Assembly (NCBI RefSeq): GCF_002105155.1
Contig: NW_019029022.1
Location: forward strand, 124,001 to 188,000
Reading direction: 5' to 3'
Source of the DNA: Lobosporangium transversale
Taxonomy: Eukaryota
Length of the DNA stretch: 64,000 nucleotides
Positions 6,269 to 57,541 of this stretch are shown here, one piece after another (the stretch's first letter is position 1; every line of letters begins with the position of its first letter). Both the position numbers and the translations under genes were made by a program. The notes under the pieces were generated by a model. That model worked only from the letters and a program-made list of their open reading frames with translations. It had not been told where the DNA came from and searched no databases.

Positions 6269-8297
6269 CGTCTTTTTTCTGTCACAACAGCCATCCCCTT
6301 ACTTCCTCGTCTCCACGTTCCTCTCTCGGAAAATGTCCTATGGCAAGGACATCTCATGTTCTAGACTTGGTCATTAGCATTCAGTTGATCAGCTCTACTT
6401 CATTTGGTTTTCCTCATTCATTTTTTATAATTCTTACTTCTGTCTTTAAAAGCCTACATTTTATACTAAAAAAAAAAAAAAAAAAAAAAAAACCAAAAAT
6501 CAAAAAATCAAAAAAATCAAAAAATCAAAAAAAGAAAAAAAAATGGATATCACGAAATCAACTGTTCACTTGGACCTCTGTGGCATAGATCGGGTTTTTT
6601 TATGCCCTGAAGAGCGCGAGGTACGTTTTACCAGTGACTTAAATATGTTATCATTCAGAATTCAGAATTTATTTGAAATTGACACACGCTATCAATTTCT
6701 TCACTTTTGCAACTCTCTATAGCTCCTTAAAAAAACACGTGTATATATAAAAAAAACGTTACAACTTCAGACTTTTCAGCTGCGCAGCGTATACAAAGAA
6801 CATTCAATCTAGTCTCGACCTATCAATTATTCAACCGTTGGCATTGGCAGGAATCCTTCACAATCAAAAGATGCTCGGAGATGATCGATTTTCTCTACAG
6901 GATACAATACATTCAGGATTTCGTGTGCAACCGTAGTCGTAAAGACTATTATTTTCAACGATCATTCACCCACTGATCTACTTATCTTCAACGCTCAGCC
7001 TCTCTTTATATTATATCGTGTTTATTCATTTATTGTGGACACTCTCAATCACCCTTTTCCTTCCATTTCGTTTATCGTTAGAACTGGCATGCTTAAGTCA
7101 GTTTTTCTAATCGCTGTTTTTATTTTCCTTTTAAAAGAGGCTGATGTTTCTTTTAGCCATGTACAAAATGGACCTTGGAAGGCAACAATTCCTCCTGCTC
7201 CTCGAGGGATTATTATTCCCATTTCACACTCTATTTTATCCGTTGAACAAATATATCTCTTCTAACGTATTACATTCAAGAATGGCTATCACAAGAAATA
7301 ATAAGGTACACTACTTTCTTGCGCTTCTTTTTTTTTCTTCCTAAAAAAGAAGTGTTGCGTAGTTCAGTTTATTCTATCCTTTTTGTATCTTTTAGTATTT
7401 AACAGCTTTCCCCTCTATATCTGCATAGATGTTGCTTATCCTAGCTGAGGCTCCATCAGCACTATGACTTAACTCGTTAACAATTTCTTCTTCTCAGCCC
7501 CTTTTTACTCTAACGTTCGAGACAATGGATGAATTGTCTATCAGTGATAGTCCTGCTGGGATGCGCTGGGTGTGGCGCAGTCATAAGAAGTCGAGGTGGG
7601 CCCAGATGTGTATCGATGGGGTTATTTTTCTTTCTATCCCGCAAGATTTGCTCTTTCAATATTTTTCCTTCGACAAGAAGAAAGAAAAAAGAAAAGGGTT
7701 TCTGCTTTAAGCTTATTGAAATTGACACGGACTATGTATTCTTTCTACACCTGATCTTGTTATCAGATCTTTCTCCTGTTTCTAAAAGAAGGGTTTCTTT
7801 TTAATTTCTAAACCTAATAATAAAAAACAATATATTGTTTTATAAAGCTTTATATTTTTTTTTTTCTCCTGCATCGAACGTTGAGTATTCATTTAGATAA
7901 TTTGTTTTGTTCCTGGAGGCGCAGTGTCCAAAAAAAAAAAAAAAAAAAAAAAAAAATAGAGCCAAGACACGCGTCATGAATAAATTAACTGTATTTTAAT
8001 GCCAGGGGCAAATGGAGGGAAAAGGAGAACGTGACCGAGCAAAATCCAATCAAAATGAGTACTTATTTATACACCAAAGCGTCACCGGAATGACAAAAAA
8101 AAAAAAGGGTTAAATAGCCATTGAAGGTCATTGTGGGAGATAGAAATCATCTCCACCTTTTTATTCTCTCCTTCCCTCTCATCTCGTCTCATTTCTTTTC
8201 CTCATTCCTCATTCTTCATTTTGTTCTTCATTTCTTGTATATTTCAACCTTATCGCGCTCGGGGCTTTTTTTTTTATTTTTTTTTTTTATTAAAAAA

Positions 8298-10064
8298 ATG
8301 GGAGTCCTAGGCCAAGGATCCCTCCCATATGATCAAAGCTGTAGAAACGAAGACTCCGCTGTTACTGTAAAGTTGCCTCCAGAATGTATCGAGCAAATTG
8401 TAAAAAATCTCTGGGATGAGATCTCGACGTTGCATTCGCTGCTCCTCTGCAGCCGTTCCTTCTTCTTCATGGTGGTGCCCATCTTGTACCGAGAGCCATT
8501 TCGGTTGATCGACAATCATCGGACTTGGAGCCGTTCATCTAAGGCTAAAAAGACTGCTTATCTGATGCGGGTCTTGTATACCTGTTCAGAAACTAAGCCT
8601 AATCAATGGAACTTACAGGAGCACGCGACGCAGAGGCAAGGTCGAGGTCAAGGCCAAGATCAAGAGCAAGGTCAAATGTCTGAGAAAACTATTGAGGATT
8701 CAACATTAATCCAATCTATAACGACTTTATCAATATCATCGTCATCACTGCCTATATTAACTTCCACCATCCCAAGTTCTTCCTCCGTCATTGCTTCTGG
8801 TGATAATGATACTACTACGACAATTACGGCTATTACCCCAATAAGACATATCGACCCATTTTCTTCTAACTCTTCATCATATCAAGGAAAGACCACGGCC
8901 AGGTTTCAACGTCACCCATTTAGTCCTGAAATAGAAAAGAGGGATCCCTTGCCTGATCCGCTGACGACAGATTATCTCTATTACTACACTAATCAATCTC
9001 AAATCCCAAGAGTCTCAAGAGCGTTTTCGGTCCTTAATCCATCGATTCAACTTCATCATCGGGATCAGCATGAGTTTGAGCGTGCGTTCGCAGAATCGAG
9101 CAAGACTTTTTTATTGGCAGTCTATGGACATTTCCCAGAACGGATTAAAACTCTTTCGATGACGCCGTCACAGTTAAGTGTGATCTTGTTCCAGAAAGCG
9201 CCTAAAGTCTCCAAAACATCAATACCAACAACAACAACAGAAACAACGAGTACAGTTCAGACAGAAATATCAGATCAAGCTGGGGAACCCGCCCAGAGCT
9301 ATGACCATGATAATGGCCAAATGACTCATCCTAAGAGAGTAGAGAAGCGTATTCGAGCTGCAGGTGTTGGGGCGTTGAAATCATTAAGCCGATTGGAGCT
9401 TGACTTTGGAGCTGGCTTTATAGTCAGTACACTTGAAGAGTGGTTCAGCGAAGGCAATCAAGACGAAGCCAACACGGTGGATGTGCTGAATGAGTTTGGA
9501 GTGATGGTCAAAGCTCGAATGAGGCCAGAAAACGTACCCTTGTTGTTCATTCGAGAGCATCAAAAGTTATTTCCAACCTGCCCTGAGGATTCTGTAGTGC
9601 CCGTAGGAGACATACTTGGATATACAGCTAGTGCTATTAACGCTAGGACCAGCATCAATAACAGTAGCAATAGAAATAATATACCGGGGACATTTCTGCG
9701 AGAGCTCGTTGTCCGCGGAAGTCACTCTACATGGACGCCTACACAACTTCTTCGAAACATTGAGCCTCTCAAAGTAGTGGATCTCTCTGCATGGAATTCC
9801 AATGTACCTTATCTGGAACAAATTCCTTCGAGACGATTGGTATCGTTTAAGGTCAATATTGCACGTCGGTTAGGGTCAGTTCAGGTGCCGATCTCCTATC
9901 TGAGACAACATTGTCGACATATACAAGAAATTTGGATGCCGGCACAAGGACCTGATACGTTCAAATGGGCGATTGATGTCTCAAAGCCTATTTCTCCTTT
10001 TGTGACACAAGCAAGACTCAGAAGGCGAAGGTTATATAGAGACAATAGCAATGGTAATAGCGGC

Positions 10065-10109
<45 letters not shown>

Positions 10110-11039
10110 ACAGAAGCTGCAACAGTATTTTCGTCAACTGCTGTTGAAGCTATTGGTGGACAAGGGGGGCAGGCTAACAATGGAATACTAGACCAGCAAC
10201 AATCCATGCTATCAACTTTACCACCTGTTCCACAACACAATTTACCACTTGAAAAATGCTTCTTTGACCTTACTTTGATCCCTCCTCTCAAAAAGGTCCG
10301 TCTCTATGGTGGTCCGCAAGAGCTAGTTCCAAGTCTCGAGGATGCTCTGGATGCCTTTCGAGATTCAATAGAGGAATTGGCAGGGTATGAGGATGGATAT
10401 AGTGCACGCGCAGAATATCCCAGGATGTCGATTGACTGGTCCTGTCATTATTTGACTCATTTGGATTTGAGGGGTCGGTTTGTCTTCTTTTTCGATGTTG
10501 GAACCTTAAGAAACTGTCCTAATTTGGAGGTGGTGAAGTTGGTGATTGAATCGAATATTGGACCTGAATTCGGGAACAGTAATGACAATAGTAGTACAAG
10601 AGCAACAAGGACTAGATCTTACAGAGATGGAGAAGTTGGAGAAGAAGAGGAGGATGAGGATGATACAGCATCATTTTATAAGGTATTTGCAAGGATGGCT
10701 CGGTTGAGAGAGCTGCAACTCCGAGGAGCATCATGGGGAATCGATGACAGAGCTCTAGAAACGCTTTTAGGAGGAGAAGGGGGAGGACCAGGAACAGGAC
10801 CAGGACCAGGAGAAGAAGAGGTTCATAGATCAGCCTTAAGGAACACTTTAGAGATCTTTAGCATTGCTGAATCATATCAACCAAGCAGAAGAGTCCTGAC
10901 ATCGTTCGTGGGGGGAATGACTAAGCTGCGGATCATTCATTTGGCGACAACGTATGCTTATTTAGCGGAATCTCTCCGAAATGCTGTTGAGCCTCGGAAA
11001 TTGTTTGTAGAATATATCGGCGCTGATTCGGATATGTAG
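8298..11039 (+). CDS. Single-exon F-box-like protein with degenerate C-terminal LRRs
   Basis: First ATG at 8298. F-box-like LPPECIEQIVKNLWDEISTLHSLLLCSRSFFFMVVPILYREPF; LRR-like segments (LTHLDLRG, CPNLEVVKL, LRELQLRG); (GGAGCA)n Gly-Ala repeat at ~10065-10109. Confidence 0.75.
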
Positions 11040-25870: not shown

Positions 25871-27194
25871 ATGAATCTGCTCAACAATAATGACACTCTT
25901 AGTCTTCCCAAGGTAGGTTAAAAAATGCGATATGGTAATTAGTAACGTTACGCCGATAAGCATTGGTCAATTGCTTTTGCCCAAATAATAATAATTATTT
26001 TTAAAAAAAAAAAAAAAAAAAAAAAACGTAGCTTCGAAATGTCTTGATTCGACTTGAAGACACCATCATCTTTGGTAAATGAGATTCTTTTGCATTCCAA
26101 TGACACTAATTGAAGCAAAAAAAAAAAAAAAAACAACCGCTGTCTCTAAATTTTGACCTAATTGAGAGACAATGCTCCTTCTTTCATGGTGTTTGTACAT
26201 CCATAGCTTTAATCGAGCGTGCACAGTTTGCGTTGAACCAACGTATCTACGAGCCGGGAATGTACCAATATGATGATGCGAAGTACAAGGGCTCATTCTT
26301 GGGTTACTTTTTGCATGAAATGGAAAAAGTCCATGGTAAGGGGGAAAAAGAAAAAAAAGAAAAAAGGGGGATTAAAAGATGCAGACCCCCTTATTTTTTT
26401 TTTTTTTAAGCTTCTAGCTTAAAATATATCATTTTTTTTATATGTATTAGCTCGAGTTCGTCGTTACACATCACCAGATGAATATCCATTCACATCACCT
26501 TTGCCAGAGCCGGTGTTACCACCATTAAATTTTCCGCCGGTCCTACATAAGAACGACATTAATGTGAACAAGGATATCATGGAGAGATATTTAAAGGATA
26601 TAGTGCCCAAGATTTGTCCCCCGGGAGATGATCAAAACTATGGATCTTCAGCCACTAGGGATGTAGAATGTCTTCAGGCGCTCAGCAAACGTATCCATTA
26701 CGGTAAATGAAAGAAGAAATTGAATGCTTCAATCTTGCCTCTAAATTTCATTTCTTTTACTTATTTCCTTTTTGTGTGTGTGTGTGTGTTTATGTGTTGG
26801 AGGACATCTAGGCAAGTTCATTGCAGAATCAAAGTTCATTGATCCTAAGGAACAAAAGACATATATTCGATTGATCCAAAACAAAGATCGTGACGGGCTC
26901 ATGAAATTGTTGACCAATCGAACGGTGGAGGAAGCACTGTTGAGACGATTGCGTCGAAAGGCCATGATCTATGGTCATGATATTACAGAAACTGGAGAAA
27001 TCGATGGTGGTATTGCTGTTGATAACAATGGCCAACCACTGTCAGCATCAGAACAAGCTGAACAACACAAGAATCGAAAGATCCGTGCAGATGTGGTGGT
27101 GGATCTCTATGAACGGTTTGTGATCCCTTTGACAAAGGAAGTTGAAGTCGACTACTTGCTGCAGCGATTGGATGGGCTGAAGGTCCCAGAGTAA
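25871..27194 (+). CDS. ARO7: Chorismate mutase (eukaryotic AroQ type), multi-exon
   Basis: Spliced [27 protein letters not shown] ... [13 protein letters not shown] ... [31 protein letters not shown] ... [17 protein letters not shown]. Confidence 0.95.
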
Positions 27195-27404
27195 AAAAAA
27201 TAAAATAAAAAAATAAAATAAAGCTTTGGTTCAAGCAAATAAAGAATGTAATTCCCTATGCAAATGACGAACTGATCTACATGTCCTGTTACATTGGAGG
27301 AATAAAAAGATATTAGGATGCGATATGCTGTGCTCAGTTTGGGCACACCACCGGCTCAACTCTCCTTTATTAACAATTGCCTGGATGGGTCAACTCACAT
27401 TGTA

Positions 27405-27563
27405 GAGTCCTCACCAGAAAGTCGACAAACATATTTTTAAAATACTGTCTGAATCAAAAAACGATGGCTGAATTAATTCAGTGGCTTATTATCTGAAATA
27501 GAAGGCTATTTTATTTAATTTAAATCGAAAATATATTTGTCGACGACTTTCTTGAGAGGACCC
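27405..27563. mobile_element. Putative MITE (~160 bp) with ~35-bp imperfect terminal inverted repeats, flanked by TA
   Basis: Left end GAGTCCTCACCAGAAAGTCGACAAACATATTTT versus reverse complement of right end GGGTCCTCTCAAGAAAGTCGTCGACAAATATATTTT. TA at 27403-4 and 27564-5; AT-rich non-coding interior. Confidence 0.6.
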
Positions 27564-29139
27564 TAGTTAATGTTGCAAGAACGCGCCCATGTAGTACAAG
27601 ATTAAGAGGCTCCAAACTATGTACTAGTTGATGTACATGTAATAAAAAATCTTTCCACTATTCGCATCAGAAGACGATGACCTTATTGTCTTTCTTCTAC
27701 ATCTTCTATATCTATGCGGTTGTATCTTCAAACACCTATATCTCATCCCAAGAGAAATAGTACAAGGAAGTAAAAAATGGTTATCTCAACTATAACCTAC
27801 ACAGCGGGCCCGAATACTCCTTCGTTAACTCGCAAAGGAATATTTTCGATAGAACCCGAAATGCTCTTTCCAATTTATGAGTCGCAAGCCTCCCGTCCTC
27901 CAATAAGCTGGACAGAAATGTAGAAAGTATGTAAATATGAATATATGAAAATATTGGCGAAGAAAAAAAGAGGGAACGGAGTGAAAGGACCAAGGCTGAC
28001 GAGAAAAGGTGGTTGTCTTGTTTGTCTAGACGAGGGCAGCACCTCATTTCTTCCCAAAAGAGGTATCTCTGCCCTACTTCACAAAAGCAATAAGCTGGGG
28101 CGGCCATAAATGTAGAGGATCGTAGACATAGTATGGGTATAGCCTTACCGCCCAGGCTGGAGACAGCAGCTGTACCGCTCCTTCTACAAGATACCACATG
28201 AAATAGACGCTGAATAACCATCTTCCTTCCCTTTCTCCTTGAATAATCTTCCTCACTAGATGAAAGGGTGAGGCAAGAAGAGTGCGTCATTCACCGTCAG
28301 GTTAGTCTCGAATGTAGGGGTGGTTTTGTTCAAAGAGATGTTGCCGGAAGGCTGATTATTCCTCTCGAAAAGTCCAGCTGTCAAGAGCTTACGCTGCAGA
28401 TAAGACAGAATTCCATTTCCGAACTAGGTGGCGGATATATGGATATGGATGATGGATCCCTGGTAAAAGGTGGTGGATAGCAGGCGATAGCAGGGTAAAG
28501 GTAAGAGTAGATATTTATTGAGGAAGAGCTATTCAAGCGGGGATTGCGCCTTTATCTATACTATGATATGATTACACTTAAATGTCGTTATAAATCACGA
28601 TATTCAAGGACATAAACTAGGCGCGAGGCTTGCACGGCCTCAAATTTTGACGGACGTTCACACTCGGGTGGCGGACTTGTAGTTTTGCCGCTAGCCCGTG
28701 ACACCGCCATTCACCCTTATGAAGAGAGAACAAGCAGGGAGGCGGCGCTGAGCTCGAACCATCGGAAGAAGCAGCTAGGCATATCGGAGAATAGGTACAC
28801 TTGAATGAATGAGAACTAAAAAGAGAAAAAATGGAAATAAAAAGACTGTTGGGGGATAGTGAAGGCTAAAAAACATAAATGGATTACATGCCTACTCATC
28901 AAGTTCGTGAAGATCGCTGCATAGTTTCTGGGCGGAGTGTCTTAGGAACGCTTTTGATGAGCGTATAGCGATCCTTCGAGGGGCAGGAGGCGCTTCTTCT
29001 CGGCCAATGCCCTCTTAATTCTATCCTGTCTTTATCTACGTTCCATTTTCCATTCTTTGATTAATTGATCCTCAGTTTCCCTCAAAACCCCCACTGGGCT
29101 TGCAATTAGCTTGGTATTAGTCTCGGACAAGGGATGGGG

Positions 29140-29273
29140 GGAAGTGAGCCCGACATGTGCTATCCAAAGATTGGCTGAGTAGAGAATACTTCAAATATTT
29201 CACTTTTTGTACGCTTTAGAGCCAGACCGATGAATAAACGACTGCAACGCGTCAACAGTCGTGTGTGCATGCG

Positions 29274-29308
<35 letters not shown>

Positions 29309-30615
29309 AAATGAAAAGCGAACAACGATGATGCCATCCAATATCTTTTCATATTCCTACAAGATGAAGGAGGAAGAAAAACAGAAAACACTTTCAAATG
29401 GAGGCAAGGATGATACTCCATCTCATCTTCAAGCTTTGCGAGACTGTATAAACAACAGCAATAACTAAAATACAAGCCTACTGCCCTCGAACTGTTTAGC
29501 CGCTCTACATGGTGGGGTGGCGCAACAAAGAAAAAAAGATCCATTTAGACAGCGAGCAATGTGATGCGGCTGAAAGTAAAAAAATGAGTTTCAGGGCACA
29601 ACCATATTAGCATTCGCATACTCTTACTTCATTAACATTAAGCTCTAGTACTTTTTGATTCTTGGTAATAGGGCTCATTAGGTACTACCAATCAAGCTTT
29701 CATTTTTATTCTCTTCTTCTATTTCCTCTCTTCACTCCTCACAAGAGATGTGATAGACAATCGAGAACTGTGTTTCGGCAGGTTGTATCCTAATGCCTTT
29801 TCCCAGAATACGACATATGCCAATTCTCAACTCACTCGCAGTCCTTTTTTATTATTTTCATGTAAAGTAATAAAATATAAACATATGACATGTGACAGCT
29901 GATTAGGCTGTGCATTTTATTTTATTTTATTTGAAAGCGAATTAATATTTGTATGTCGACCAATAAAAAGCACACGAGTGATGTGTCTTACTTTTACCGC
30001 GTTCTGGAAAAACAAAAAAAAAAAGGTCTGTTTGGACAAAAGCTGCTACGGTACAGTTCCTGCGATAGTCTGTCTATTCCATCTGCTATTGGGAGTGAAG
30101 AGAGAGAATAAAGAAGCAAGCTTGACTGGTAGTGTCTGGTGAACTCCATTACGAAGGATTAATAATAGATACTCGAGCTGAATGTTGTTGAAAATGATAG
30201 CATGCGAGTGTTAATGTGCTTGTGCTCTGAATCTCACTGTCTAAATAGATATTTCTTTGTTGCACCACCTTAGCATGCAGAGAGCAATGTGGCTCGTGCT
30301 CTGATTGTTTGTGGGTAGCCTAATATTGTTGTTTAGATGATCTTGCAGATCTTGAAGACGGAATGTTAGCAATGCTATTCCCCACCTCCACCCATGAGTA
30401 CTTTCTCTTTTTCTCTCTTGTATGCATATGAGAAATGACGGATGATATCATGTAGTGCGCATATTATCCATTTTCAAATTCCGCTATGCCGCTTTTTTTC
30501 TTTTTTTCTTTTTTTTTTTTTGGCCGCTCTAGAGCTCTAGAGCGTACAAAAAGCAAGATGCTTGATATATTCATTATTCAGTCAATACTCTGAAATCGCA
30601 AATTGGTTTCACTTA
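29140..30615. repeat. Old, nearly spacerless palindrome (diverged arms ~750 bp, centre ~29895)
   Basis: Collinear inverted matches: CTTTTTGTACGCTTTAGAGC (29203) with ~30534-30553; CAACAAAGAAA..ATTTAGACAG (~29523-29552) with ~30237-30263; ACTACCAATCAAGCTT (~29684) with ~30118-30133; TCACTCG (29832) with CGAGTGA (29975). Confidence 0.85.
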
Positions 30616-30687
30616 TCATTTTTCCTGCGCGACTTCAAAAACCACTCATCATTCATCCATTCGTCCTTTACTCGCGAGTGCTTTCGA

Positions 30688-30694
30688 TATAAAA
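30688..30694 (+). promoter_or_regulatory. TATA box of the palindrome-borne transcription unit (mirror copy at ~36663-36669, minus strand)
   Basis: TATAAAA followed by a poly-T/pyrimidine leader and then the first splice donor. Confidence 0.55.
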
Positions 30695-30695
30695 T

Positions 30696-30740
<45 letters not shown>

Positions 30741-30953
30741 CCTTTCCTTTTCTTTTCTTTTCTTTCTTTCCCTTTTTTTCTTCTCTTCCAGTTTAGCCTC
30801 CTCGACCAACATGAAAGGTAAGCAACACTCCACAAATATTCACCCTCACTAAAGTCCTAACTCTCTCACCTTATGCTGCACTGTACTTGTTCTGACTTTT
30901 TATTTCCTGTCTATCTCTCTTTCTCTCTCTTTCACATCACTGTTAGACCACAA

Positions 30954-31642
30954 ATGATACAAACTTCTAGCCAGATACAGAGCAGAACTAGGAAACACTC
31001 TGAACAACTCAACAGCAAACTACAGACCAGAAAAAGCAAAAAAAGCCTCACCTGGTCATTCACAGAAGAGCCCTCGCCGCTGTCATCAAGTAAGTATATA
31101 GTTTATGCATGGCTTCGCTTTGTCTTGCTTGTGATTGTCCCTACCATCGAATAAGCTTAGCATACTTACAAAGCTATCTTCGTTCTTTTTTTTTTTTTTT
31201 TTTTTTTTCTTCGTCTTCCTCCTAGCTGTAATAGGGGCCACTAGCCCTAGGCTCATGGCGACGATTGTCCCAAAGACTGCAATGGGCCCATGCAGTGCTT
31301 ATCGAAATGGGGCGAAAGCGGAGCTGTAAGTACAATTTCTTTTAGAAGCACATGTCGTGATTTTCTGTCTGTACTCTGCTGTGCTCTGATTACCAAATAT
31401 TCTAACCACGCGTGTTTTTTTTTTTGTCTTCTTCCCTTAGAGGCTCATCCGCTTGGACTCTAGCCCGCCGGGCCCTCCTCCCGCCTGCCCGCCTGCCCGC
31501 CAATCCCCTTCGCCGATCCCCTTCGCCGATCCTTCCGTCAAGCCCTCGCAACTCCTTGAAGGGGGATCATTGTAGTAGCTCTAGAGAGCCTCTAGCCTCT
31601 GGACCTTACTTTGATCCGAGTGCCCTTGGGGATTTCGCGTAG
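30954..31642 (+). CDS. Putative 145-aa basic S/P/R-rich orphan protein from spliced exons 2-4 (copy 1)
   Basis: Exons 30954-31089, 31226-31325 and 31441-31642 join in frame: MIQTSSQIQSRTRK...EPSPLSS/TVIGATSPRL...GAKAEL/GSSAWTLARR...ALGDFA*. No recognisable domain. Confidence 0.4.
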
Positions 31643-32788
31643 GTAACAGATGACACACAGTTGTGGTCGTCTAAGTATGGTAAGTCAGTAGCAGTGGCCT
31701 GTTTACTAGGCCCTATAGAGCTCGAGTCCCGGCCTTCAAGGAGATCCTCCATCCAGCAGGATCAGGATCAGGATCAGGACCAGGTGTTATCAAGGCCTGA
31801 TAACACCTCAGGTAAGTATACATGCGCATACATAGCAAAGGGCATATTAACTTGATTCTACCATTGCTTTTGTTCTCTCTGTTTAGGTGGGATCTTGGCA
31901 ACTCGGAGCTCTATAGTGTTTAGTAAATAGTTCATTGTTACTGACATCATCCTTAGATTACCCCAATTAGCGAAGCTGCACCAGGCGCCTGGCTGTAGTG
32001 TGTAGTGCATGGCGTAGAGGCGTCATGTTGTGTGACCTGTTACTTGCCGTCTGAACCAAAGGTACTCTGGTCATAGTAGGGCTTCATTGGCTAGTCGCTC
32101 GATAGACTATTGCAATGAGACCTCTGCTTGGAGAAGCGAGAGCAAGGGTCATAAGAGGAGTAGAGGACCTTGAGGCATAAAAATAGATCGAAGAGCACCA
32201 TGCTTCGAATGCGGCTAGGAGCGCAGGGCCAACAGAAAGCAGACAGCAGCCGAGGGCCGAAAGCCAATAGTCAAGAGCCAGCAGTCAGCAGTCAACACCC
32301 AACATCTAACAGCAGAAAAAAAAAAAAAAAAAAAAAAAAAAAACACGCACGAACACGAACACACACAAACATAAGAGAGAAAACCCCAAAGCAAAAAAAA
32401 AAAAAAAAAAAAAAAAGATAAAAACCGAAACTAACTCAAAAAAAAAAAACACTCAAAGTCAAAGGCAGCCTCAGCCAAAGGCATAACAGGCAGCCAAAGC
32501 CATAACAGGCAGCCTTGACCAAATCAAACACACACTGCCCCGATCAAAGCAAGCGCACGCAACCTCACTCACGCCGGCCAAAGGTATCCCAGAATAATCC
32601 AGACAACCAGAGCCAGATGGCCGAAGCCAGGTAACCAAAGCCGGAAACTGAAGCCAATCAACCGAAGGGATGCCAGATGACCGATTCCAGATGATCGAGG
32701 CCGAATAGCAGAAACCGGGCGATCGCAGCCAGTCAAGCAAAGACGGTCAACTTTAGACAGTCAACTAAAGAAAGCCAACCATAGACAA

Positions 32789-32840
32789 TCAACCAAAGCC
32801 AGTCGACCAAAGTCAGTCAACCAAAGTCAGTCAATCAAAG
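32789..32840 (+). repeat. Degenerate 14-nt tandem repeat (CAACCAAAGTCAGT-like); diverged mirror array at ~34385-34470
   Basis: caaccaaagccagt cgaccaaagtcagt caaccaaagtcagt caatcaaag. The mirror reads caaccaaagtcagt cggccgaagctaac cagccgaagtcagt... on the minus strand. Confidence 0.75.
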
Positions 32841-34139
32841 GTTACCAATGTCAATCATTCAAGGCATTACCAAAAAATGTACCTAAAAAAAAAATCAAAA
32901 TATAACTAAAGGTTACCAGGAAGCACACAATAATCCATACATATCAAGACTACTTACTTCTAAAGGCTCAAAGATCTTGCCATCCTTGGGATAGGATGCA
33001 GCTTAAAAGTGAAAGCATAGTAAACAATTAGCAATAAACATTGTTTGTTCGAAGTGTTGGTAGATGGGTATCCTTGATCATTATGATTGTAGTTTCCCCC
33101 TCAATAGAAGGCAACATAACTGTAGAAGGGCAAATAGAATAAGCTGTACTGGTTCTTGCTAGCAAGCCGCTCCGTGAAAGTAACTAGTAGTGTTGCCGTT
33201 TGGGCATATCTATGACCCTGAGGCGCAATCCAATCAAAAACATGAGTAGCTTTAGTGCTATTGGCCTCTATAATCACATGTGGGATCTCTCCCCAGGCTA
33301 TAAAATAACCATTTGGGCGGATTTTTGCACCTTTGGTCTGATTACAGCAACTTAATCAGGTAGTGCATTCCGCCTGCAAAAAGACGATGAGGAAGATGCT
33401 GATCCTATTTTTTGGGGGAGGGAAAACAATACCGTGCATTGCTCTTTTTCATTGGAAGGCATGGCTTAGCAGCTTATGTGTTTAATTGGTAAGTTGCATC
33501 CACAACTACATTGTCTCAATTTTTTCCTCAAGCAAGGCCTTTGCTCATTGACTGCGAGAATGTGCCATTTCATAGCGTTTGTTGTGTTTAGTGGGTCCGT
33601 TTAAAAAACATTCAAGATTCAATTCCCGTTATTTTGAATAATAATCAAAGAACTGGCCATCAAGAGGGGATCTCACTATAAAGATGGCAGTCTACTGAAT
33701 CCACTAAGTTGCAGAAAAAAGAAAATAAACGAGGCAAATCGGGCAATAGGAACGCGTTGATCTCATATCGCTTACACAAATATACTTTCATCAAACCCCC
33801 TCCATGTCCATACTGGACCACCACAAGCGCGCGGCTGGGTGTGGCTCGTGCTCACACAAATGTATTCACTAGCCAAATTATACTCTGCATCCGAATTAGC
33901 GAGGATGATCTCAAGAGTTCTTTTATTAAAAAGCTTTATCGATTGCCATGTCGGATATTTATTGAAAACCAGGACTGCTTGAGCCCGATGGCTATTTCCC
34001 ACTTCATGTTATACACTCCAATGATACCAACGATTCAATGTTCAACTTCTTTCCTTGGATATAGTAGTTATTGAGTAAGTTATACTTTCAATTCGGGGAG
34101 GCAACTACAGTCATAACGATCAAGAACATTTATCCATCT

Positions 34140-34924
34140 ACCAATATTTCAGACAAACAATGTTTATTGCTAATTGTTTACTATGTTGGCGCTTCCGAGC
34201 CGCACTCTATCCTAAGGATGACCAGGTTCGTAGGCAAAAGACTTTTGTTTTGTTATTTAGAGGTAGATAGTCTTTTGTGGATTATTGTTTTGGCCTTTGG
34301 GCTTCTTTGAAAATATTTTTAGTGTATCCTTGCGCAGTGCCTCGGATGATTGGCTTTGATACCTTTCAGTCGGCTGCCATTAGTTGGCTGGCTTTGGCTG
34401 AATGACTTCGGCTGGCTGGCTTCGGCCGACTGACTTCGGCTGGTTAGCTTCGGCCGACTGACTTTGGTTGTCTGGATCATTCTGGATTGCCTTTGTGGTT
34501 TGATTGATGTTGGTATGTTTGTTTTGATTGAGGCACCCTGTGTTTATTTTACCTGGCGCTCCCTTTGGTGATTTGGTTAAGGCTGAGTGTGTTTACTTTG
34601 ACTGGGGAGCTCGCGGCTACCTTGACTAGCGCTGCCCCTAGTGGTTTGATTGAGGCAGCCTGTGCTGGTTTTGATCAAGGTACTCTACTATTGGCTTTAA
34701 TTAAGGTTGCCTTTGGTTGATTTAGTTGAAGCTGCCTATGTCTGGTCTGGCTGTAGCCGCTATGCTTGATCGGGCGGAGAGCGCTGGATGAAGCTGCCTT
34801 GTATTAAGCTTAGTTGTGGAAGTCTTCGGTTGACTATGACTTTGGCGTTGGCATTGGTGTTGGCTTTGGCTTTGGCTTTGGCTTTTTTTGATTTTGTTTT
34901 TGTTTTTTGAGTTAATTCTTTTTT

Positions 34925-34962
<38 letters not shown>

Positions 34963-35007
34963 TTGGGGTTTTCTCTCTTATGTTTGTGTGTGTTCGTGTT
35001 CGTGCGT

Positions 35008-35039
<32 letters not shown>

Positions 35040-36615
35040 CTGCTGTTAGATGTTGGGTGTTGACTGCTGACTGCTGGCTCTTGACTATTGGCTTTCGGCC
35101 CTCGGCTGCTGTCTGCTTTCTGTTGGCCCTGCGCTCCTAGCCGCATTCGAAGCATGGTGCTCTTCGATCTATTTTTATGCCTCAAGGTCCTCTACTCCTC
35201 TTATGACCCTTGCTCTCGCTTCTCCAAGCAGAGGTCTCATTGCAATAGTCTATCGAGCGACTAGCCAATGAAGCCCTACTATGACCAGAGTACCTTTGGT
35301 TCAGACGGCAAGTAACAGGTCACACAACATGACGCCTCTACGCCATGCACTACACACTACAGCCAGGCGCCTGGTGCAGCTTCGCTAATTGGGGTAATCT
35401 AAGGATGATGTCAGTAACAATGAACTATTTACTAAACACTATAGAGCTCCGAGTTGCCAAGATCCCACCTAAACAGAGAGAACAAAAGCAATGGTAGAAT
35501 CAAGTTAATATGCCCTTTGCTATGTATGCGCATGTATACTTACCTGAGGTGTTATCAGGCCTTGATAACACCTGGTCCTGATCCTGATCCTGATCCTGCT
35601 GGATGGAGGATCTCCTTGAAGGCCGGGACTCGAGCTCTATAGGGCCTAGTAAACAGGCCACTGCTACTGACTTACCATACTTAGACGACCACAACTGTGT
35701 GTCATCTGTTACCTACGCGAAATCCCCAAGGGCACTCGGATCAAAGTAAGGTCCAGAGGCTAGAGGCTCTCTAGAGCTACTACAATGATCCCCCTTCAAG
35801 GAGTTGCGAGGGCTTGACGGAAGGATCGGCGAAGGGGATCGGCGAAGGGGATTGGCGGGCAGGCGGGCAGGCGGGAGGAGGGCCCGGCGGGCTAGAGTCC
35901 AAGCGGATGAGCCTCTAAGGGAAGAAGACAAAAAAAAAAACACGCGTGGTTAGAATATTTGGTAATCAGAGCACAGCAGAGTACAGACAGAAAATCACGA
36001 CATGTGCTTCTAAAAGAAATTGTACTTACAGCTCCGCTTTCGCCCCATTTCGATAAGCACTGCATGGGCCCATTGCAGTCTTTGGGACAATCGTCGCCAT
36101 GAGCCTAGGGCTAGTGGCCCCTATTACAGCTAGGAGGAAGACGAAGAAAAAAAAAAAAAAAAAAAAAAAAGAACGAAGATAGCTTTGTAAGTATGCTAAG
36201 CTTATTCGATGGTAGGGACAATCACAAGCAAGACAAAGCGAAGCCATGCATAAACTATATACTTACTTGATGACAGCGGCGAGGGCTCTTCTGTGAATGA
36301 CCAGGTGAGGCTTTTTTTGCTTTTTCTGGTCTGTAGTTTGCTGTTGAGTTGTTCAGAGTGTTTCCTAGTTCTGCTCTGTATCTGGCTAGAAGTTTGTATC
36401 ATTTGTGGTCTAACAGTGATGTGAAAGAGAGAGAAAGAGAGATAGACAGGAAATAAAAAGTCAGAACAAGTACAGTGCAGCATAAGGTGAGAGAGTTAGG
36501 ACTTTAGTGAGGGTGAATATTTGTGGAGTGTTGCTTACCTTTCATGTTGGTCGAGGAGGCTAAACTGGAAGAGAAGAAAAAAAGGGAAAGAAAGAAAAGA
36601 AAAGAAAAGGAAAGG

Positions 36616-36640
<25 letters not shown>
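34140..36640 (-). ncRNA. Putative five-exon structured transcript, copy 2 (convergent with copy 1)
   Basis: Mirror of copy 1 up to the poly-A tract near 34927-34959. Its 3' part is diverged but keeps the 33-bp AATAAA island (34153-34185). Confidence 0.6.
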
Positions 36641-36661
<21 letters not shown>

Positions 36662-37932
36662 ATTTTATATCGAAAGCACTCGCGAGTAAAGGACGAATGG
36701 ATGAATGATGAGTGGTTTTTGAAGTCGCGCAGGAAAAATGATAAGTGAAACCAATTTGCGATTTCAGAGTATTGACTGAATAATGAATATATCAAGCATC
36801 TTGCTTTTTGTACGCTCTAGAGCTCTAGAGCGGCCAAAAAAAAAAAAAGAAAAAAAGAAAAAAAGCGGCATAGCGGAATTTGAAAATGGATAATATGCGC
36901 ACTACATGATATCATCCGTCATTTCTCATATGCATACAAGAGAGAAAAAGAGAAAGTACTCATGGGTGGAGGTGGGGAATAGCATTGCTAACATTCCGTC
37001 TTCAAGATCTGCAAGATCATCTAAACAACAATATTAGGCTACCCACAAACAATCAGAGCACGAGCCACATTGCTCTCTGCATGCTAAGGTGGTGCAACAA
37101 AGAAATATCTATTTAGACAGTGAGATTCAGAGCACAAGCACATTAACACTCGCATGCTATCATTTTCAACAACATTCAGCTCGAGTATCTATTATTAATC
37201 CTTCGTAATGGAGTTCACCAGACACTACCAGTCAAGCTTGCTTCTTTATTCTCTCTCTTCACTCCCAATAGCAGATGGAATAGACAGACTATCGCAGGAA
37301 CTGTACCGTAGCAGCTTTTGTCCAAACAGACCTTTTTTTTTTTGTTTTTCCAGAACGCGGTAAAAGTAAGACACATCACTCGTGTGCTTTTTATTGGTCG
37401 ACATACAAATATTAATTCGCTTTCAAATAAAATAAAATAAAATGCACAGCCTAATCAGCTGTCACATGTCATATGTTTATATTTTATTACTTTACATGAA
37501 AATAATAAAAAAGGACTGCGAGTGAGTTGAGAATTGGCATATGTCGTATTCTGGGAAAAGGCATTAGGATACAACCTGCCGAAACACAGTTCTCGATTGT
37601 CTATCACATCTCTTGTGAGGAGTGAAGAGAGGAAATAGAAGAAGAGAATAAAAATGAAAGCTTGATTGGTAGTACCTAATGAGCCCTATTACCAAGAATC
37701 AAAAAGTACTAGAGCTTAATGTTAATGAAGTAAGAGTATGCGAATGCTAATATGGTTGTGCCCTGAAACTCATTTTTTTACTTTCAGCCGCATCACATTG
37801 CTCGCTGTCTAAATGGATCTTTTTTTCTTTGTTGCGCCACCCCACCATGTAGAGCGGCTAAACAGTTCGAGGGCAGTAGGCTTGTATTTTAGTTATTGCT
37901 GTTGTTTATACAGTCTCGCAAAGCTTGAAGAT
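34927..37932 (-). repeat. Right outer arm of large inverted repeat (~3.0 kb)
   Basis: Reverse complement of 29425-32416. Outer junction ATCTTCAAGC / GCTTGAAGAT is sharp. Confidence 0.97.
35713..36402 (-). CDS. Putative 145-aa orphan protein, copy 2
   Basis: Mirror of 30954-31642 with the same splice sites. Confidence 0.4.
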
Positions 37933-38270
37933 TGTACGCGAACAAGTGCCTACACAAGCAAGGCGTCATTTAATATGGCGACAACGCATCCCAAGATCCC
38001 AAATGAGCATACGCCTGAACTGGCCCTTTGTAGCTTAGAATGTAGCTAGGTAAACTCGATAGCTAGATAGCAAACAATTTCTCAATAAAGATTAAAAAGT
38101 GTTTGATTCAAATAGCAAGTGACGCCTCTCTTAATGCATCTTCTGTTGCGCTGTGTCTGTGCTTTGGAACGATAATGATCAAAAGGCAAGCTCAGGCGAA
38201 TTCGCAAAGGGCAGCCGCTTCTCTGAATGTCTGTTCCTATGCGAAGCAGTCTGTATCCTTTGAGACCATT
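37932..38270 (+). repeat. 339-bp direct repeat, copy 1
   Basis: Matches 39345-39683 with about 10 substitutions counted by eye (~97%). Begins exactly where the palindrome arm ends. Confidence 0.95.
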
Positions 38271-51404: not shown

Positions 51405-53244
51405 TTAGTTGCATTCATCCTCTCCAGGGACAGCAATGCACAGAAAACCAACGCGTAAAGCTTCCTCACTCTCATTCCTTTGACGTATCTGATAGGCCCA
51501 TGCTTCAGATCTGTCCCACAACTCCATCACATCCTTGCCTTCCCTAGCAACATGTTCTGCTTCGACAGTGCACTGAGGTGTCAGGACTATAGCTTCTTTA
51601 GCGGTGCTATGGTGCTTGTAGTCATCCAAGGGATGTGTGATCCTGGCTGGGAAAAGATCCACCCCATCCTTTGTCTTTGTTCCAGTAGTCTCTCCATACG
51701 CAAATTGGATCCACATCGTCTGTACTCGCTCCATGAATCGTTTTTCATCCTCATTCAAGACTTTCTCGAGTGCATAGTCTGGTCCGAACACATACACAAG
51801 ATCAAGACCATGATGCGCACCCCAGCCACGGCCAACAGCATCCACTGCCTCAATAGAGCGTTCAAAATAATACTGAAATAACTTGAACCTTTCTTCTCCC
51901 TCCTTTGAACCCTCGCGCAACGACTGTGTTGATGGTTGGGAGGAGTCCAAATCTTTGCGCTTGGAGAGCACTCGCAAGACAGAGAAAACTGGGTAGGCAA
52001 ACACACAATGATCCAACACTTGCTCAGATACTTTTTTAGCATCTAAATCAGTCTTTGGCTTCCCATATACCTTTTCCCACAATTGTTGGCTGACTTCATC
52101 AGGAGGACAGAACCTCTCGTACAACCTTGGCAGCCCTTTTAGTGTTGTGGGGCCCATGGCCGGTAGAAGCGAGCTCGCCTCATTTAACATGCATCCAGCC
52201 ATGACAGCTTTGACCCCTTGGTCGAACATTTCAGCCTTTTGGGCTCGTATGTAAATATCTTTAGGAACCATCAGTCCGTCCGCATAAGGTGTGACCAGTC
52301 GAACCCTCTTAGAAGATACAGCTAAAGCCAGCTCCATGCTTGGCACTTTTTTCAGTAGCTCAAGCTTCTCTTTCCCGGACAACTCCTTTGGAATATTAAA
52401 ATGATCGACCAGAAAATCAAAGTAAAGCTTTCCTTCCACATGGGGCCGAATGGCTGTAAGAGGGGTAAAAGCGCCAGAATGCATGATCGCTCGATGGAAG
52501 AGGCCATGATGCTGAGGGATTAACATGTGGTAATTGACGCATACAGCACCAGCTGATTGACCCATAGCCGTGATATTGGAGGGATCACCACCAAAAGCTG
52601 CAATGTTGTTGTGGACCCATTCAAACGCAAGACGTTGGTCTTGAAGTCCCCAGTTCCCGGTAGCCCTCTCGTAATCAGTCTTGAGATTTGGATCCGACTC
52701 AATATCTGCAATAAGCTCTGGACAAGAGAAGAACCCGTGGAAGTTAAGTCGATAGTTGGGAACAACCACAATCACAGGACGCCCTAGCTTTGTTGCCTGG
52801 CGGACCAGATTACTGCCATCTAAAATATCCGACTCTTTCTTTTTTTAGTAACTGCTCTCTTCTGCTTCCATTATTATGAGAAGGAAAGGTTCTTATTTTT
52901 AAATGCTTATCAAATCTTACCATAGAGCTCCATAACATTGGCGCCATCACAGGATCCGCCCCCATGAATGAATACAACAACGGCTGCGCCTTTGGATTTT
53001 ACTTCTGCTGTCTCGACCACCTTCTTCTTTAGTGTGTCCTCATGCACAAAAACGTTGAGGTTTAGACAATGTTTCTCATCAAACTCGGTGGTTTCATCGT
53101 CAAAGTCGACAGGTGAAAAAGTATTGATGTGCCTTGAAATGCGCCCTTCTGCTTTGGGTTGAGGACAGACTGGTCTAAAGTGAGCAGAAAAAAAAGAAAC
53201 AAGAGACATTCATTGATATGACTGTATTGAAAGCAAAAAAAGAA

Positions 53245-53278
<34 letters not shown>

Positions 53279-53566
53279 TCGACGACAAATTACAATATTG
53301 CCTGAAGAGGAGTCTTATTGATAGAAATATGTGTATATCTTCATGGTGTCCTTATTCTTGTTGCACTTTGGACACACATACCCTAATTTGGTCGCATCAC
53401 GAACACCGGTCCATGGCTCAGGCTTAACAGCAGGCCGCCATCTCTCCTGAACAACACCGAAGGGAACATTCAAGAAGCGAACAACATCTTTGTTTGGATC
53501 CAATGCACCTTGAATGATACCTTGGTTTGCAATATGAATTTGAGTTGTGTCTGATGGCTGACTCAT
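51405..53566 (-). CDS. Type-B carboxylesterase, paralog 1, 3 exons
   Basis: FLNVPFG, CLNLNVF, FIHGGG, NYRLNFHGF, NWGLQDQRLAFEWV, nucleophile GQSAG, candidate triad Glu (LNE) and His (AHHGLDL). Confidence 0.92.
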
Positions 53567-54197
53567 ATTGGAACAAATAAAAAAAATAAAATTGTGCAAG
53601 AGTGAGAAAAGGATACAGAGCAAAAAGTGTGATGTTCATGATTTTTATTTTTTTTTCCTTTGAGCCTTCCAGGCTTCTGGACCCCTTCTGCCCCTTCAGT
53701 GACACTGATGGCTGTAAATTGTTACGGCAGTGAGACTGATGGGTGTAGATTATCGTGGGAATATTTTCTCCCCAGACTGGGCCACGTGTTACAGGTGTAG
53801 AACTCAAGATTTGGATCATGAGAAATATTCGGTCCACAACAGATGACCAACATTGCTACTCGCGCGCCTTGTAACTAAAAACCATGCTACAATTAAGAAA
53901 TTTGTCAAATCGTCCAGCTTCCCTGTCTGTTTACCCTCTCTGATATTTTTATTTATTTATTTTCTTATTTATTTATTTATTTTACTTTCAATTTCGCTTA
54001 TTGCATTTTGGACTCATTGAGAACTCGAAATATAGAGTTCGTCCAAAGGTAAGTAAAAAAAGAAAACAAAACACTAGCACTCTGAAGGATAGGGAAATGT
54101 GGAAGAAGAAGTTCAGGAAGCTGAGGTTCTTAGGTCGAGACATGTTATCTCCTATATTGCAAAGAAAAGGACAAATAGATTAATAAAGCATTCACAT

Positions 54198-54561
54198 TGT
54201 TGGTTTTAGTTTTAGTCACGTGTAGAGGGTTCGCCACCAACTATTTAACGAGCAACAGCTCAGGAAAATCTGGCTCCTTGTTCCTTATTTTTACACAAGA
54301 GCCATTTGAGTACTGACTGTTCTCGTCCAGGTAAAGAGCCCTCACAACGTTCGTCGTTAGTAGCCATAGATCATTAAAGGTTCCTTATTTTTACACAAGA
54401 GCCATTTGAGTACTGACTGTTCTCGTCCAGTCTTTGAGTAGTGTGTGTGTTCTTTTATTGTGTTAGAATTATTTATCTATCTGCAGCTGGAAGTGACCGG
54501 CTTCATAATCCACCAAAACGACCTAAATCTCCTACCACATCTGCCCCTAAATTTTGCAACA
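54198..54561 (+). repeat. 5' LTR
   Basis: Matches 60763-61126; contains an internal ~51-bp duplication (54280-54330, 54380-54430). Confidence 0.97.
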
Positions 54562-54568
54562 ATATTTC

Positions 54569-54580
54569 TGGTGATCTATG
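54569..54580 (+). promoter_or_regulatory. Primer binding site candidate TGGTGATCTATG
   Basis: Lies 7 nt after the 5' LTR, starts with TGG, and is also complementary to LTR 54365-54376. Confidence 0.6.
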
Positions 54581-57541
54581 CAGGGGGTGGCAGCTACAAT
54601 GTCTTCCAATTTATCGATTCTTCTTACCATGATCCCGAAGTGGCCGTCGGCAGAGGCTGAGGGTCTAACCGCCGCGACATGGATCAGCGATTTTGGAGGT
54701 GTTATCGAAGGAGAAACCCTGAGCAACAAGTTGATGTTCGTCGAGAGGCAGGCGACAGGCAAGATCCAACGCTGGATCAGGCGTTGGAGGATGACAAACA
54801 AGACGAATGGTGCCTGGAGCCAGTTCGTCAGCGATTTCATCATGGAGGCCTCTACCCCTAGAAGCCAGGATGTCACCCTGGACGAGTTGCATTCTATTAA
54901 GCAAGGAGAAGATGAGACGACAGCCAACTATGTACAACGAATGAAACTTACCATGGAACTCCTCGACCCAGAGTCTGGTTGCGACGCACAGCCGTACAAG
55001 ATCCCAACAGCCACCGAGCGTCTACTGGCGTACAGATTTTGCAAGGGTTTGAGGCAAGACCATCCTTTCAAGGTCAAGAACAAAGAAGCGCCTGCGACCT
55101 TGAAGGAAACCTTCGAATCAGTGACACAATTGGTTGAAGGAAATCGTTGGGGCATTGACACCACTGAGAGCCGTGTCATAGCTCGCAGCAACGCTGAGCA
55201 TGCTGCACCAATCGAGACGAATGTTCTGCTTGGATCGACCCTAGTGCCGAGGACGCACTACTCTGGCTTCCTAGCGGACTTCAAAGACGACAAAGAGAAA
55301 GTTAATCAATTAAGCGTAGACGAATTAACAGACATGTTCGGAGCCTGGACCCTTGCTGCCGAGGAGCGAACTCCGGAGGCGCGAATCGCTCAGACTATCT
55401 CAAGAATGAGCCCGGCTGTAGCGAGGCGAGTGTTTGGTTCCTCTGAATTGGCCAAGCATATTAGAGTGGAGGCTAGACCTAATGCCGTGCTCCAACCCGC
55501 CGAAGTTCGAAGTCAGCAGGCTATCCCTATGGCCCGTAGAACCTGCCATAAATGTAATCAAGAGGGGCACCTCTTGTCGTTCTGCCCATTGGTGGAATGC
55601 TTCCGATGTGGCGAGCGAGGCCATACTTCGAAGGTTTGCACTAAGGAACAAGGAAGCCCCGCCACAGGCGCCAATAGCGTCCCATTGGCCACTCAAACTA
55701 ACTCCTCGCTAAGAGTGCAAAGTTTAGAAATCTCCGCCACTAATGTCGCCCAATCATTTATCACGACTAAGCCACAGCGATTAAATTCGACAGGTGCCCA
55801 GCGACGTCGCAGTGAGAGGACAGGCACTCCTGCAGGTCCATCGTCTCAACGAAGAGAGGAAACGAGAGGCACTACTCCACCTGTCCGAGGAATGCAGTGG
55901 GAGGCTGAGGCATCCACTAGTAGTGCGCAACCTTCTGGGGACCCCCACTTCCAGACAGTGACTTTTGATGACAGAGCGGTCGACGGGCGAGAGAATAATG
56001 TTGCAGAAGCTCCAAATGCGACGCCAAAGCGTACCAGGAAGCGTGTCATTCCTGATCCAGTGTTCGTTGATGCGGTCGAAGGATTGAATTTTGATTTGGC
56101 CACTCACTCCAAGTACCGTGGAAAGATGGCAGTGCAACTCAAGGCAGCTGTTACCGAGGCCTGGGCCCGCCATGCCCCTCCAAGAAGAAGCAAGCCTAAG
56201 AGGAGTCAGTCAGCAATAGCTATGGCCAGGAACGTTCAAGGTGGCAAAGGTGATGTCACGACCGTCACCGCCTTGGGACGAGACTTCAACAACGCCGTTA
56301 TTGATCCAGGCAATGACCATACTATGATGGGCCTACATGTGGCAAACGCACTCGGACTGAAGTTAGAGCCTGCTACTCGTGCGGTGCTATTGGCCCATGG
56401 GTCCTTCCAGAAGCTTGCGGGCCGCACAAGACCTATCGATATTTATGTGTCCGGGATCCCCTTGAGAATGTCGATGGGAGTGATCGACTGTAAGGGCACA
56501 TATGACTTCCTCCTTGGCGATGACTGGCTCAAGGCGCTGAAAGCCAAGGCTGATTGGAGCAACGGTATCGTGTACTACGTGGAGAGTGAGGGAAGGACTA
56601 TCACCCTTGGTGGCGGTCTAAATGTTCGCGCCTCAACCCCTCAGCCTACGACATCAACGTACTTGTCTGATGAGAACGATGAGTATGATGATGAGTACGA
56701 CGACTATGAGGATGACGAATCAATCTACGAGACGGAAGAATCCGATGCTGATGCAGGGTACAGAGCCTTGAGAGTGAAGACAATAGAGGTCGGTGACCCG
56801 GATCTGCAGGCGATGACCGCAAGAGTGTTCTCTAGCAAGATACAGTGCGAGAATGACGATGCTCGCGTAAAAAGGCAGCCGTTCGCGGTTGACGGAGTCA
56901 ACGTGGACATCAACCCAAATTTGTCCAATGAGCAGTACGGACAGATTGTGGAGTTACTTGAAAGGAATAAGGACAGGCTGACTACCAACCTTGAGGACCT
57001 CGAAGTGACGTCTATTTTAGAACATGAGATCAACATTCAACCAGGCGCCAAGCCAGTGTACGTAGGATGGTGCAAACGGTACTCGCCGAAGGAGCTTGAC
57101 TTCCTTAAGAAGAGTGTTGATGATGAGCTTAAGGCAGGAAAAATCATAGAGATGGAGAGCGAGTGGTGCGCGCCGCTGAGTCTTGCTCCTAAGAAAGACG
57201 GATCCTTGCGCAAGTGCGTCGCATACATAGGCCTAAATAAGGTTACCGAAAGGGAGAGCTGGCCACTGCCAAACATCGAGGAAATACTTGACAACTTAGG
57301 CGGATTCGAGTACTACAGTAGCCTGGACGGATTTCAAGGTTATTACGTGATTGGCATCAAAAAAGAGCATGTCAAGTATCTTGGCTTCCGTACGCCTTTT
57401 GGGACGTTTGCATACAAGGTAATGCCATTTGGGCTCAAGAACGCGCCACATACCTTCAGTCGCTTCGTTAGAAAGTGTACTCAGACCTTATCGGAAGAGT
57501 GCTTGAGGCGTACATGGACGATGTGTGCGTGCGCACGATGA
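54578..57541 (+). CDS. Gag (two CCHC knuckles)-protease-N-terminal RT polyprotein
   Basis: CHKCNQEGHLLSFC, CFRCGERGHTSKVC; protease AVIDPG...DFLLGDDWL; RT PKKDGSLRKCV, SLDGFQGYY, VMPFGLKNAP. Confidence 0.92.
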   Translation: MQGVAATMSSNLSILLTMIPKWPSAEAEGLTAATWISDFGGVIEGETLSNKLMFVERQATGKIQRWIRRWRMTNKTNGAWSQFVSDFIMEASTPRSQDVTLDELHSIKQGEDETTANYVQRMKLTMELLDPESGCDAQPYKIPTATERLLAYRFCKGLRQDHPFKVKNKEAPATLKETFESVTQLVEGNRWGIDTTESRVIARSNAEHAAPIETNVLLGSTLVPRTHYSGFLADFKDDKEKVNQLSVDELTDMFGAWTLAAEERTPEARIAQTISRMSPAVARRVFGSSELAKHIRVEARPNAVLQPAEVRSQQAIPMARRTCHKCNQEGHLLSFCPLVECFRCGERGHTSKVCTKEQGSPATGANSVPLATQTNSSLRVQSLEISATNVAQSFITTKPQRLNSTGAQRRRSERTGTPAGPSSQRREETRGTTPPVRGMQWEAEASTSSAQPSGDPHFQTVTFDDRAVDGRENNVAEAPNATPKRTRKRVIPDPVFVDAVEGLNFDLATHSKYRGKMAVQLKAAVTEAWARHAPPRRSKPKRSQSAIAMARNVQGGKGDVTTVTALGRDFNNAVIDPGNDHTMMGLHVANALGLKLEPATRAVLLAHGSFQKLAGRTRPIDIYVSGIPLRMSMGVIDCKGTYDFLLGDDWLKALKAKADWSNGIVYYVESEGRTITLGGGLNVRASTPQPTTSTYLSDENDEYDDEYDDYEDDESIYETEESDADAGYRALRVKTIEVGDPDLQAMTARVFSSKIQCENDDARVKRQPFAVDGVNVDINPNLSNEQYGQIVELLERNKDRLTTNLEDLEVTSILEHEINIQPGAKPVYVGWCKRYSPKELDFLKKSVDDELKAGKIIEMESEWCAPLSLAPKKDGSLRKCVAYIGLNKVTERESWPLPNIEEILDNLGGFEYYSSLDGFQGYYVIGIKKEHVKYLGFRTPFGTFAYKVMPFGLKNAPHTFSRFVRKCTQTLSEECLRRTWTMCACAR

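Follow-up and report, generated by a model that had tools for sequence, protein, structure and literature searches.

A spliced, expressed and multi-copy gene with a long predicted RNA fold-back in a palindrome of Lobosporangium transversale

The window, that is, the whole stretch of 64,000 nt that was analyzed, carries recognizable fungal genes, including MED12, ZNHIT3, SDH5, a phosphodiesterase and carboxylesterases, together with a Ty3 element. The sequence identifies the host as Lobosporangium transversale or a very closely related fungus, for its ARO7 exon (26802-27191) shares 99% identity with that of L. transversale and about 54-75% with other Mortierellaceae. Between ARO7 (which ends at 27194) and ZNHIT3 (at about 39825) lies an island of 12.6 kb, and no Pfam family reached the curated cut-off in 30 read-through frames covering its flanks, upstream region, stem and spacer. 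A short inverted repeat (27403-27565; 31 of 35 positions paired around a loop of about 90 nt) is located directly downstream of ARO7. Elsewhere in the window, an intronless ORF of 973 codons (8118-11039) has no Pfam match and presumably resembles the F-box/leucine-rich-repeat type proteins of Mortierellaceae. In the Ty3/gypsy element (54198-61130), which we judge to be young, the 368-bp LTRs are 99.7% identical and have TG..CA ends, and 4 bp of target sequence are apparently duplicated; its gag-pol is split into two overlapping frames (54575-57541 and 57472-60141), which suggests a frameshift. It is sited between two duplicated carboxylesterase genes, tandem paralogues at 51402-53591 and 61669-63921 that are 83% identical across 1.86 kb.

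The island contains a palindrome whose arms carry two copies of an intron-bearing gene, tail to tail. The features are as follows.

29112-30644, no strand: older inverted duplication (head to head) of the region upstream, with its centre near 29900 and no overall G:U bias
29425-32420, plus strand: left arm of the palindrome
30688-30817, plus strand: TATA-like site, pyrimidine tract and exon 1
30947-31089, plus strand: exon 2, A/C-rich and U-poor; an ORF of 145 codons starts at 30954
31226-31325, plus strand: exon 3
31441-31811, plus strand: exon 4, with C-rich repeats near 31466-31537 that are missing from several other copies
31560-31730, plus strand: 5' arm of the fold-back, holding a consensus donor at 31680
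31812-31886, plus strand: intron 4, within the terminal loop of the fold-back
31897-32125, plus strand: 3' arm of the fold-back, split by a side branch of 60 nt (31969-32028)
32316-33013, plus strand: variable tail, rich in A and poor in U, in which 14-nt repeats lie at 32730-32840
33014-33121, plus strand: conserved 3' block with AATAAA (33033) and 3' flank, mirrored at about 34078-34185
33122-34077, no strand: unique spacer of 956 bp, with close variants in DNA runs
34930-37932, minus strand: right arm of the palindrome with the second gene copy
35230-35795, minus strand: the same fold-back in the second gene copy
36409-36267, 36129-36030, 35914-35544 and from 35468, minus strand: exons 2, 3, 4 and 5 of the right copy

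The anatomy proposed in the sequence-only reading, a five-exon gene with a TATA box, four introns and an AATAAA signal, was largely found in the sequence. A TATA-like site is present at 30688, and the introns occupy 30818-30946 (donor GTAAGC), 31090-31225, 31326-31440 and 31812-31886 (all three GTAAGT). Each of them combines its GTAAGY donor with a pyrimidine tract and a TAG acceptor; of the 21 GTAAGY sites that the window has on its plus strand, five fall within this 1 kb. The AATAAA at 33033 lies inside a block of 32 nt that is identical in both tails. The spliced RNA, predicted at about 1.9 kb, has a computed length of about 1.89 kb, the exon 2 described as U-poor and A/C-rich consists of 42% A and 14% T, the tail has the 14-nt repeats ascribed to it, and the stop of the ORF (31640-31642) precedes donor 4 by 169 nt, where about 170 nt had been given. 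An upstream ATG at 30811 opens an ORF of five codons after splicing. The gene is probably transcribed by Pol II and polyadenylated near 33050.

Seven of the eight public runs listed contain part of the stretch; four studies and one organism label are represented, and none of the runs is recorded as RNA. We compared the contigs of four of the eight (three DNA runs and one RNA-like run, X5) over positions 30800-34830. The RNA status of X5 is a guess, supported by exact GT..AG joints that are missing from the three DNA runs. Splice junctions 1 to 3 of the four that had been predicted are represented in the X5 contigs: contigs pass from exon 2 straight into the opening letters of exon 3 and likewise from exon 3 into those of exon 4, and for junction 1 the end of exon 1 is present as just 14 loose letters ahead of exon 2. 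The fourth intron was seen in its retained form only, since X5 contig 27 (31626-31977) reads through it unspliced and another variant also enters it, with the caveat that a rarer spliced form may be lost from contigs. The consensus GTAAGT donor at 31680 is apparently unused, as no joint from it is among the contig joints listed; its use would remove most of the upper stem described below. Both tails in the window have their own X5 contigs (32632-33032 with no differences and 34521-34830 with one), so that both local gene copies appear to be transcribed; contig depth was not taken as a ranking of expression. X5 cover is absent from 33095 to 34444, spacer included, a gap that is no proof against read-through. 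At 34557 the window has C and all four runs have G, which indicates an assembly error or a strain difference. Altogether, the gene is real, spliced and expressed.

The palindrome arms extend from 29425 to about 32420 and from about 34930 to 37932, and homopolymer lengths are their sole differences. Perfect complementarity stops at about 32420; from there the two tails are homologous but diverged (about 70-80% alike), reconverge on the 32-nt block with AATAAA, and can be aligned as far as 33121 and 34078. The older duplication upstream pairs 29112-29880 with 29920-30644 and folds well on both strands. This arrangement may have arisen by repeated inverted duplication, after which one arm was recently overwritten by a copy of its counterpart, although the perfect identity of the arms may be a polishing artefact. 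A direct repeat of 339 bp with 97% identity (37932-38270 and 39345-39683) begins exactly where the right arm ends, and an additional repeat of 22 bp (38950 and 39726) is suggestive of an old tandem duplication of 1.4 kb. We rejected the 339-bp repeat as an LTR pair: it has TG..CA ends, but no target-site duplication was seen. The mirrored promoter at 29170-29222 is not followed by any clearly intact gene, and an 11-bp motif, possibly a promoter element of the gene family, occurs four times in the window (29203, 30543, 36804 and 39231), each time close to a long run of T or A within the island. Read on the minus strand, positions 28806-28869 weakly resemble the 3' end of intron 1, with a similarity score of 44 compared with 38 for the best of 20 shuffles, and may be a remnant of a paralogue to the left.

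The gene had been described as present twice; the DNA runs suggest a family whose size we estimate at roughly ten or more copies from several distinct variants and a depth elevated about tenfold. Each of the three DNA runs contains three different deletions of 58-59 nt near 31465-31537, several 3' flanks and variant spacers. A contig of 325 nt over the upper stem has a depth of 90.6 in run X2 and 79 in run X4, compared with 7-17 and 6-13, respectively, for the tail and spacer contigs listed; such depths are not copy numbers, and one run may be the source of the window sequence. Because introns and 3' flanks are kept in the copies, the family may have spread by inverted duplication at the DNA level. 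Membership in a known repeat family had been named as an outcome that would overturn the original proposal: the gene does belong to a repeat family, but one that matched no known family. Scans of metagenomes with two motifs returned 0 loci for each. The arms contain no fungal telomerase template motif.

The sequence-only reading placed the structure of this RNA in GC-rich hairpin exons, with one hairpin formed across the exon 3/4 junction. That hairpin can form, but 84 of 500 shuffled sequences fold equally well (z -0.9), which is the level of chance, and the region from exon 3 to early exon 4 has a z-score of +0.3. The significant structure is a fold-back between exons 4 and 5. Self-comparison showed that 31661-31727 is complementary to 31901-31966, and folding lengthens this pairing to a rod spanning 31560-32125. 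The rod has a predicted energy of -305.5 kcal/mol, with a z-score of -6.7 on the transcribed strand (none of 20 shuffles was as good) versus -2.9 on the other strand, also against 20 shuffles. It comprises 145 predicted pairs, arranged in a lower and an upper stem (about 140 bp), most helices having a probability above 0.9; in the predicted fold, 91 of the 154 windows of 21 nt have at least 17 paired bases. Removal of intron 4 leaves the predicted stem intact. Among the non-simple fold-backs in the 64 kb that fit within 700 bases, the rod ranks second to the upstream inverted repeat.

The composition of the arms may reflect selection on the predicted hairpin as RNA. When the arms were aligned by identity only, 16 G:U and 3 A:C oppositions were counted (binomial p 0.002), whereas the control, the upstream DNA inverted repeat, gave 50 and 46 (20 and 10 for its inner part alone, p 0.049); the tail control (47 and 53) is symmetric by construction. 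The excess of G:U could also come from a transcription-linked mutation bias, although the rest of the transcript is A/C-rich. Among the 40 of 165 variant rows listed, five changes fall in the main stem and all five keep pairing, with the G:U pair in other copies for four of them and in the window for one; no two-sided compensatory change is among these rows, and one of the five stem pairs has a probability of 0.49. In the loop sub-stems, two of three changes break pairs, and a common variant of the DNA contigs has a deletion of 1 nt at the paired position 31711. The longest unbroken helix measures 14 bp, and the stem tolerates 28 mismatches of the transversion type; a young inverted duplication would be less broken.

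The position of the fold-back also changes where double-stranded RNA would be expected. For the long perfect dsRNA proposed originally, transcription would have to continue through both the spacer and the diverged tail, and two convergent transcripts share the same sense sequence and do not pair with each other. In contrast, a fold-back within exons 4 and 5 would provide double-stranded RNA inside each transcript, without any read-through. The earlier proposal of a structured lncRNA or a bifunctional RNA stands in so far as the RNA is spliced, structured and probably non-coding; its bifunctional part is weakened by the interruption of the ORF in other copies.

The interpretation that we favor, with about even confidence, is a family of hairpin-RNA genes, of the hpRNA or pri-milRNA-like kind, that would be a source of small silencing RNAs. 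Each copy would be transcribed, spliced and probably polyadenylated, as suggested by the spliced contigs for junctions 1 to 3, and exons 4 and 5 would fold within the transcript into the predicted rod with intron 4 in its loop. By analogy with known systems, an RNase III-type enzyme (of the Dicer type or another) would cut the rod into small RNAs, which would load on Argonaute and guide the silencing of a putative target. Of the features that characterize hpRNA and milRNA loci, a spliced, mRNA-like precursor was found in one run, and the predicted fold-back is fit for duplexes of about 21 nt. In 55 kb of the window no target stood out from chance: the best 21-nt matches of the arms had 3.5-4 penalties, close to the 4-5 of shuffled arms.

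Plant-type primary microRNA genes have a TATA box, introns, a poly(A) signal, short upstream ORFs and a long imperfect stem bearing G:U pairs, and they form families of paralogues. The Lobosporangium gene shares these features, but it has a fungal host and no defined miRNA/miRNA* duplex. Drosophila hpRNAs such as hp-CG4068, Nmy and Tmy are defined by Dcr-2-dependent siRNAs of 21-22 nt and often match a target gene (PMC10317233). Like the Lobosporangium gene, they have a spliced mRNA-like precursor and a long fold-back, are lineage-specific and are sometimes multi-copy, some being exact or tandem genomic copies (PMC10317233). Unlike them, the Lobosporangium gene is known from its sequence and a predicted fold, in a species for which Dicer is reported missing. 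Fungal mi/milRNA loci are similarly intergenic, lack an Rfam match and have stem segments able to hold a duplex; their well-supported hairpins are usually short, however (PMC9757828), whereas the Lobosporangium rod is about 570 nt long, carries a side branch and has intron 4 in its loop. Mucoromycota are able to process hairpin transcripts, as hairpin-triggered silencing in Mucor proceeds via Dcl-2; these triggers are engineered constructs, whereas the Lobosporangium gene is endogenous (PMC8705501). RNAi in Mortierella alpina is reportedly the subject of a study cited in PMC8705501. The word 'Mucor' does not occur in the main text of PMC9757828. Lobosporangium is listed with a dsRNA virus in PMC10224137, and this virus is a possible candidate target. 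The presence of ERH in L. transversale (PMC10605862) has no bearing on the interpretation.

It is possible, if rather doubtful, that the product is instead an intact, structured long non-coding RNA, in which the rod serves as a protein-binding scaffold or a localization element. Deep RNA contigs cover the stem well, the rod has regular non-canonical internal loops (two tandem GA/AG loops in the predicted drawing) between short helices, and conserved 5' exons and a conserved 3' block flank the variable tail, all of which would suit an RNA that acts uncut. However, Rfam gave no match at the gathering score (best E 1.2 over 27200-39900) and for the stem region there was none even with E allowed up to 10, and beyond the rod one local tail hairpin is the sole significant structure. 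A single rod with symmetric mismatches is, moreover, also the anatomy of small-RNA precursors. The main objection to the hairpin-RNA reading concerns Dicer: a supplement of PMC12663654 states 'No Dcr detected' for the L. transversale proteome, at 96% BUSCO, while 47 of the 52 Mortierellomycetes proteomes are recorded there as having Dicer. In the same material, different assemblies of Dissophora ornata and of Gamsiella multidivaricata disagree on its presence, so that Dicer calls depend on annotation. The missing Dicer of L. transversale may be an annotation gap; if real, its absence would favor the intact RNA over the hairpin-RNA reading.

A selfish or neutral repeat, either a non-autonomous DNA element or an unstable segmental duplicate, that is transcribed and carries the hairpin as a relic is unlikely, although several observations fit it. 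The copies, about ten or more in number, the nested inverted duplications of different ages, the 339-bp repeat that begins exactly at the arm end and the lack of relatives in the metagenome motif scans are all compatible with such a repeat. Yet the 30 read-through frames of stem, spacer and flanks contain no transposase or reverse transcriptase, no target-site duplication is evident at the ends of the arms or the stem, and the arms contain no hammerhead core. Furthermore, the G:U excess is strand-specific and the introns work. An autonomous transposon or a Penelope-like element was rejected on the same searches.

Another reading, which we consider improbable, is a family of small, fast-evolving proteins or peptides with a structured 3' UTR, some copies being pseudogenes. 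The ORF of 145 codons is in frame over two confirmed junctions and is still long for chance, since 49 of 1,000 local shuffles gave one of that length (p about 0.05). Its codon-use score of -0.13 is the highest of its own three frames, compared with -0.02 to 0.16 for five coding frames of the host. All six of the exon 2 changes listed among the paralogues are non-synonymous in this frame, indels of 13, 58, 59 and 1 nt break it in other copies, and the deepest RNA contig over exons 3 and 4, with letters read by eye, has a stop after codon 83. Expressed copies are thus interrupted by a stop and by frameshifts, and the upstream ATG lies ahead of the ORF. The exon 2 peptide had no homologue among proteins over 79 aa, nor had the other-frame peptide of exon 3 in an exon-level search of proteins above 73-80 aa. 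Since it is broken in other copies, the ORF is probably not the gene product, and stop and frameshifts in copies, non-synonymous changes and missing matches together are not what a conserved protein-coding gene would present. In exon 2 (30947-31089), five of the same six listed changes fall at third positions of the frame from 30947, and four are silent; this pattern may be left over from an ancestral coding frame or be due to chance (p about 0.05). That frame, however, lacks an ATG within exon 2 and is interrupted there by three stops, and its single match, an unrelated tandem-repeat protein, was spurious. The in-frame TAG was rejected as a sign of editing or recoding, as stops occur in all frames and RNA-only differences are inseparable from strain or paralogue differences.

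Least probable is a small regional centromere with a core of about 1 kb, homogenized inverted arms and pericentromeric transcripts, for although some yeasts have inverted-repeat centromeres of similar layout, the 12.6 kb from ARO7 to ZNHIT3 are devoid of recognized protein genes and spacer variants exist, the spacer has an ordinary GC content (41.5% versus 42.1%), the arms hold a well-formed gene with introns, housekeeping genes are no farther than 2-3 kb away, and we found no supporting paper.

For the hairpin-RNA family, we found no prior description of endogenous hairpin-RNA genes in Mortierellaceae in the open-access literature, and an expressed, multi-copy family of this kind is apparently undescribed so far. 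The natural occurrence of long hairpin RNAs is, according to PMC9757828, still to be explored, and a multi-copy, spliced and expressed long hairpin gene would allow a direct test in a fungus of an early-diverging lineage. Drosophila hpRNA genes mark recent genetic conflict, and the target could therefore be a selfish element. Should Dicer be truly absent, the case would be stranger and would imply another way of using long RNA stems: it is possible, though rather doubtful, that a Dicer-less fungus keeps and amplifies spliced RNAs with a selected rod of 140 bp, in palindromic pairs, either for a Dicer-independent small-RNA pathway or as a new class of multi-copy structured lncRNAs.
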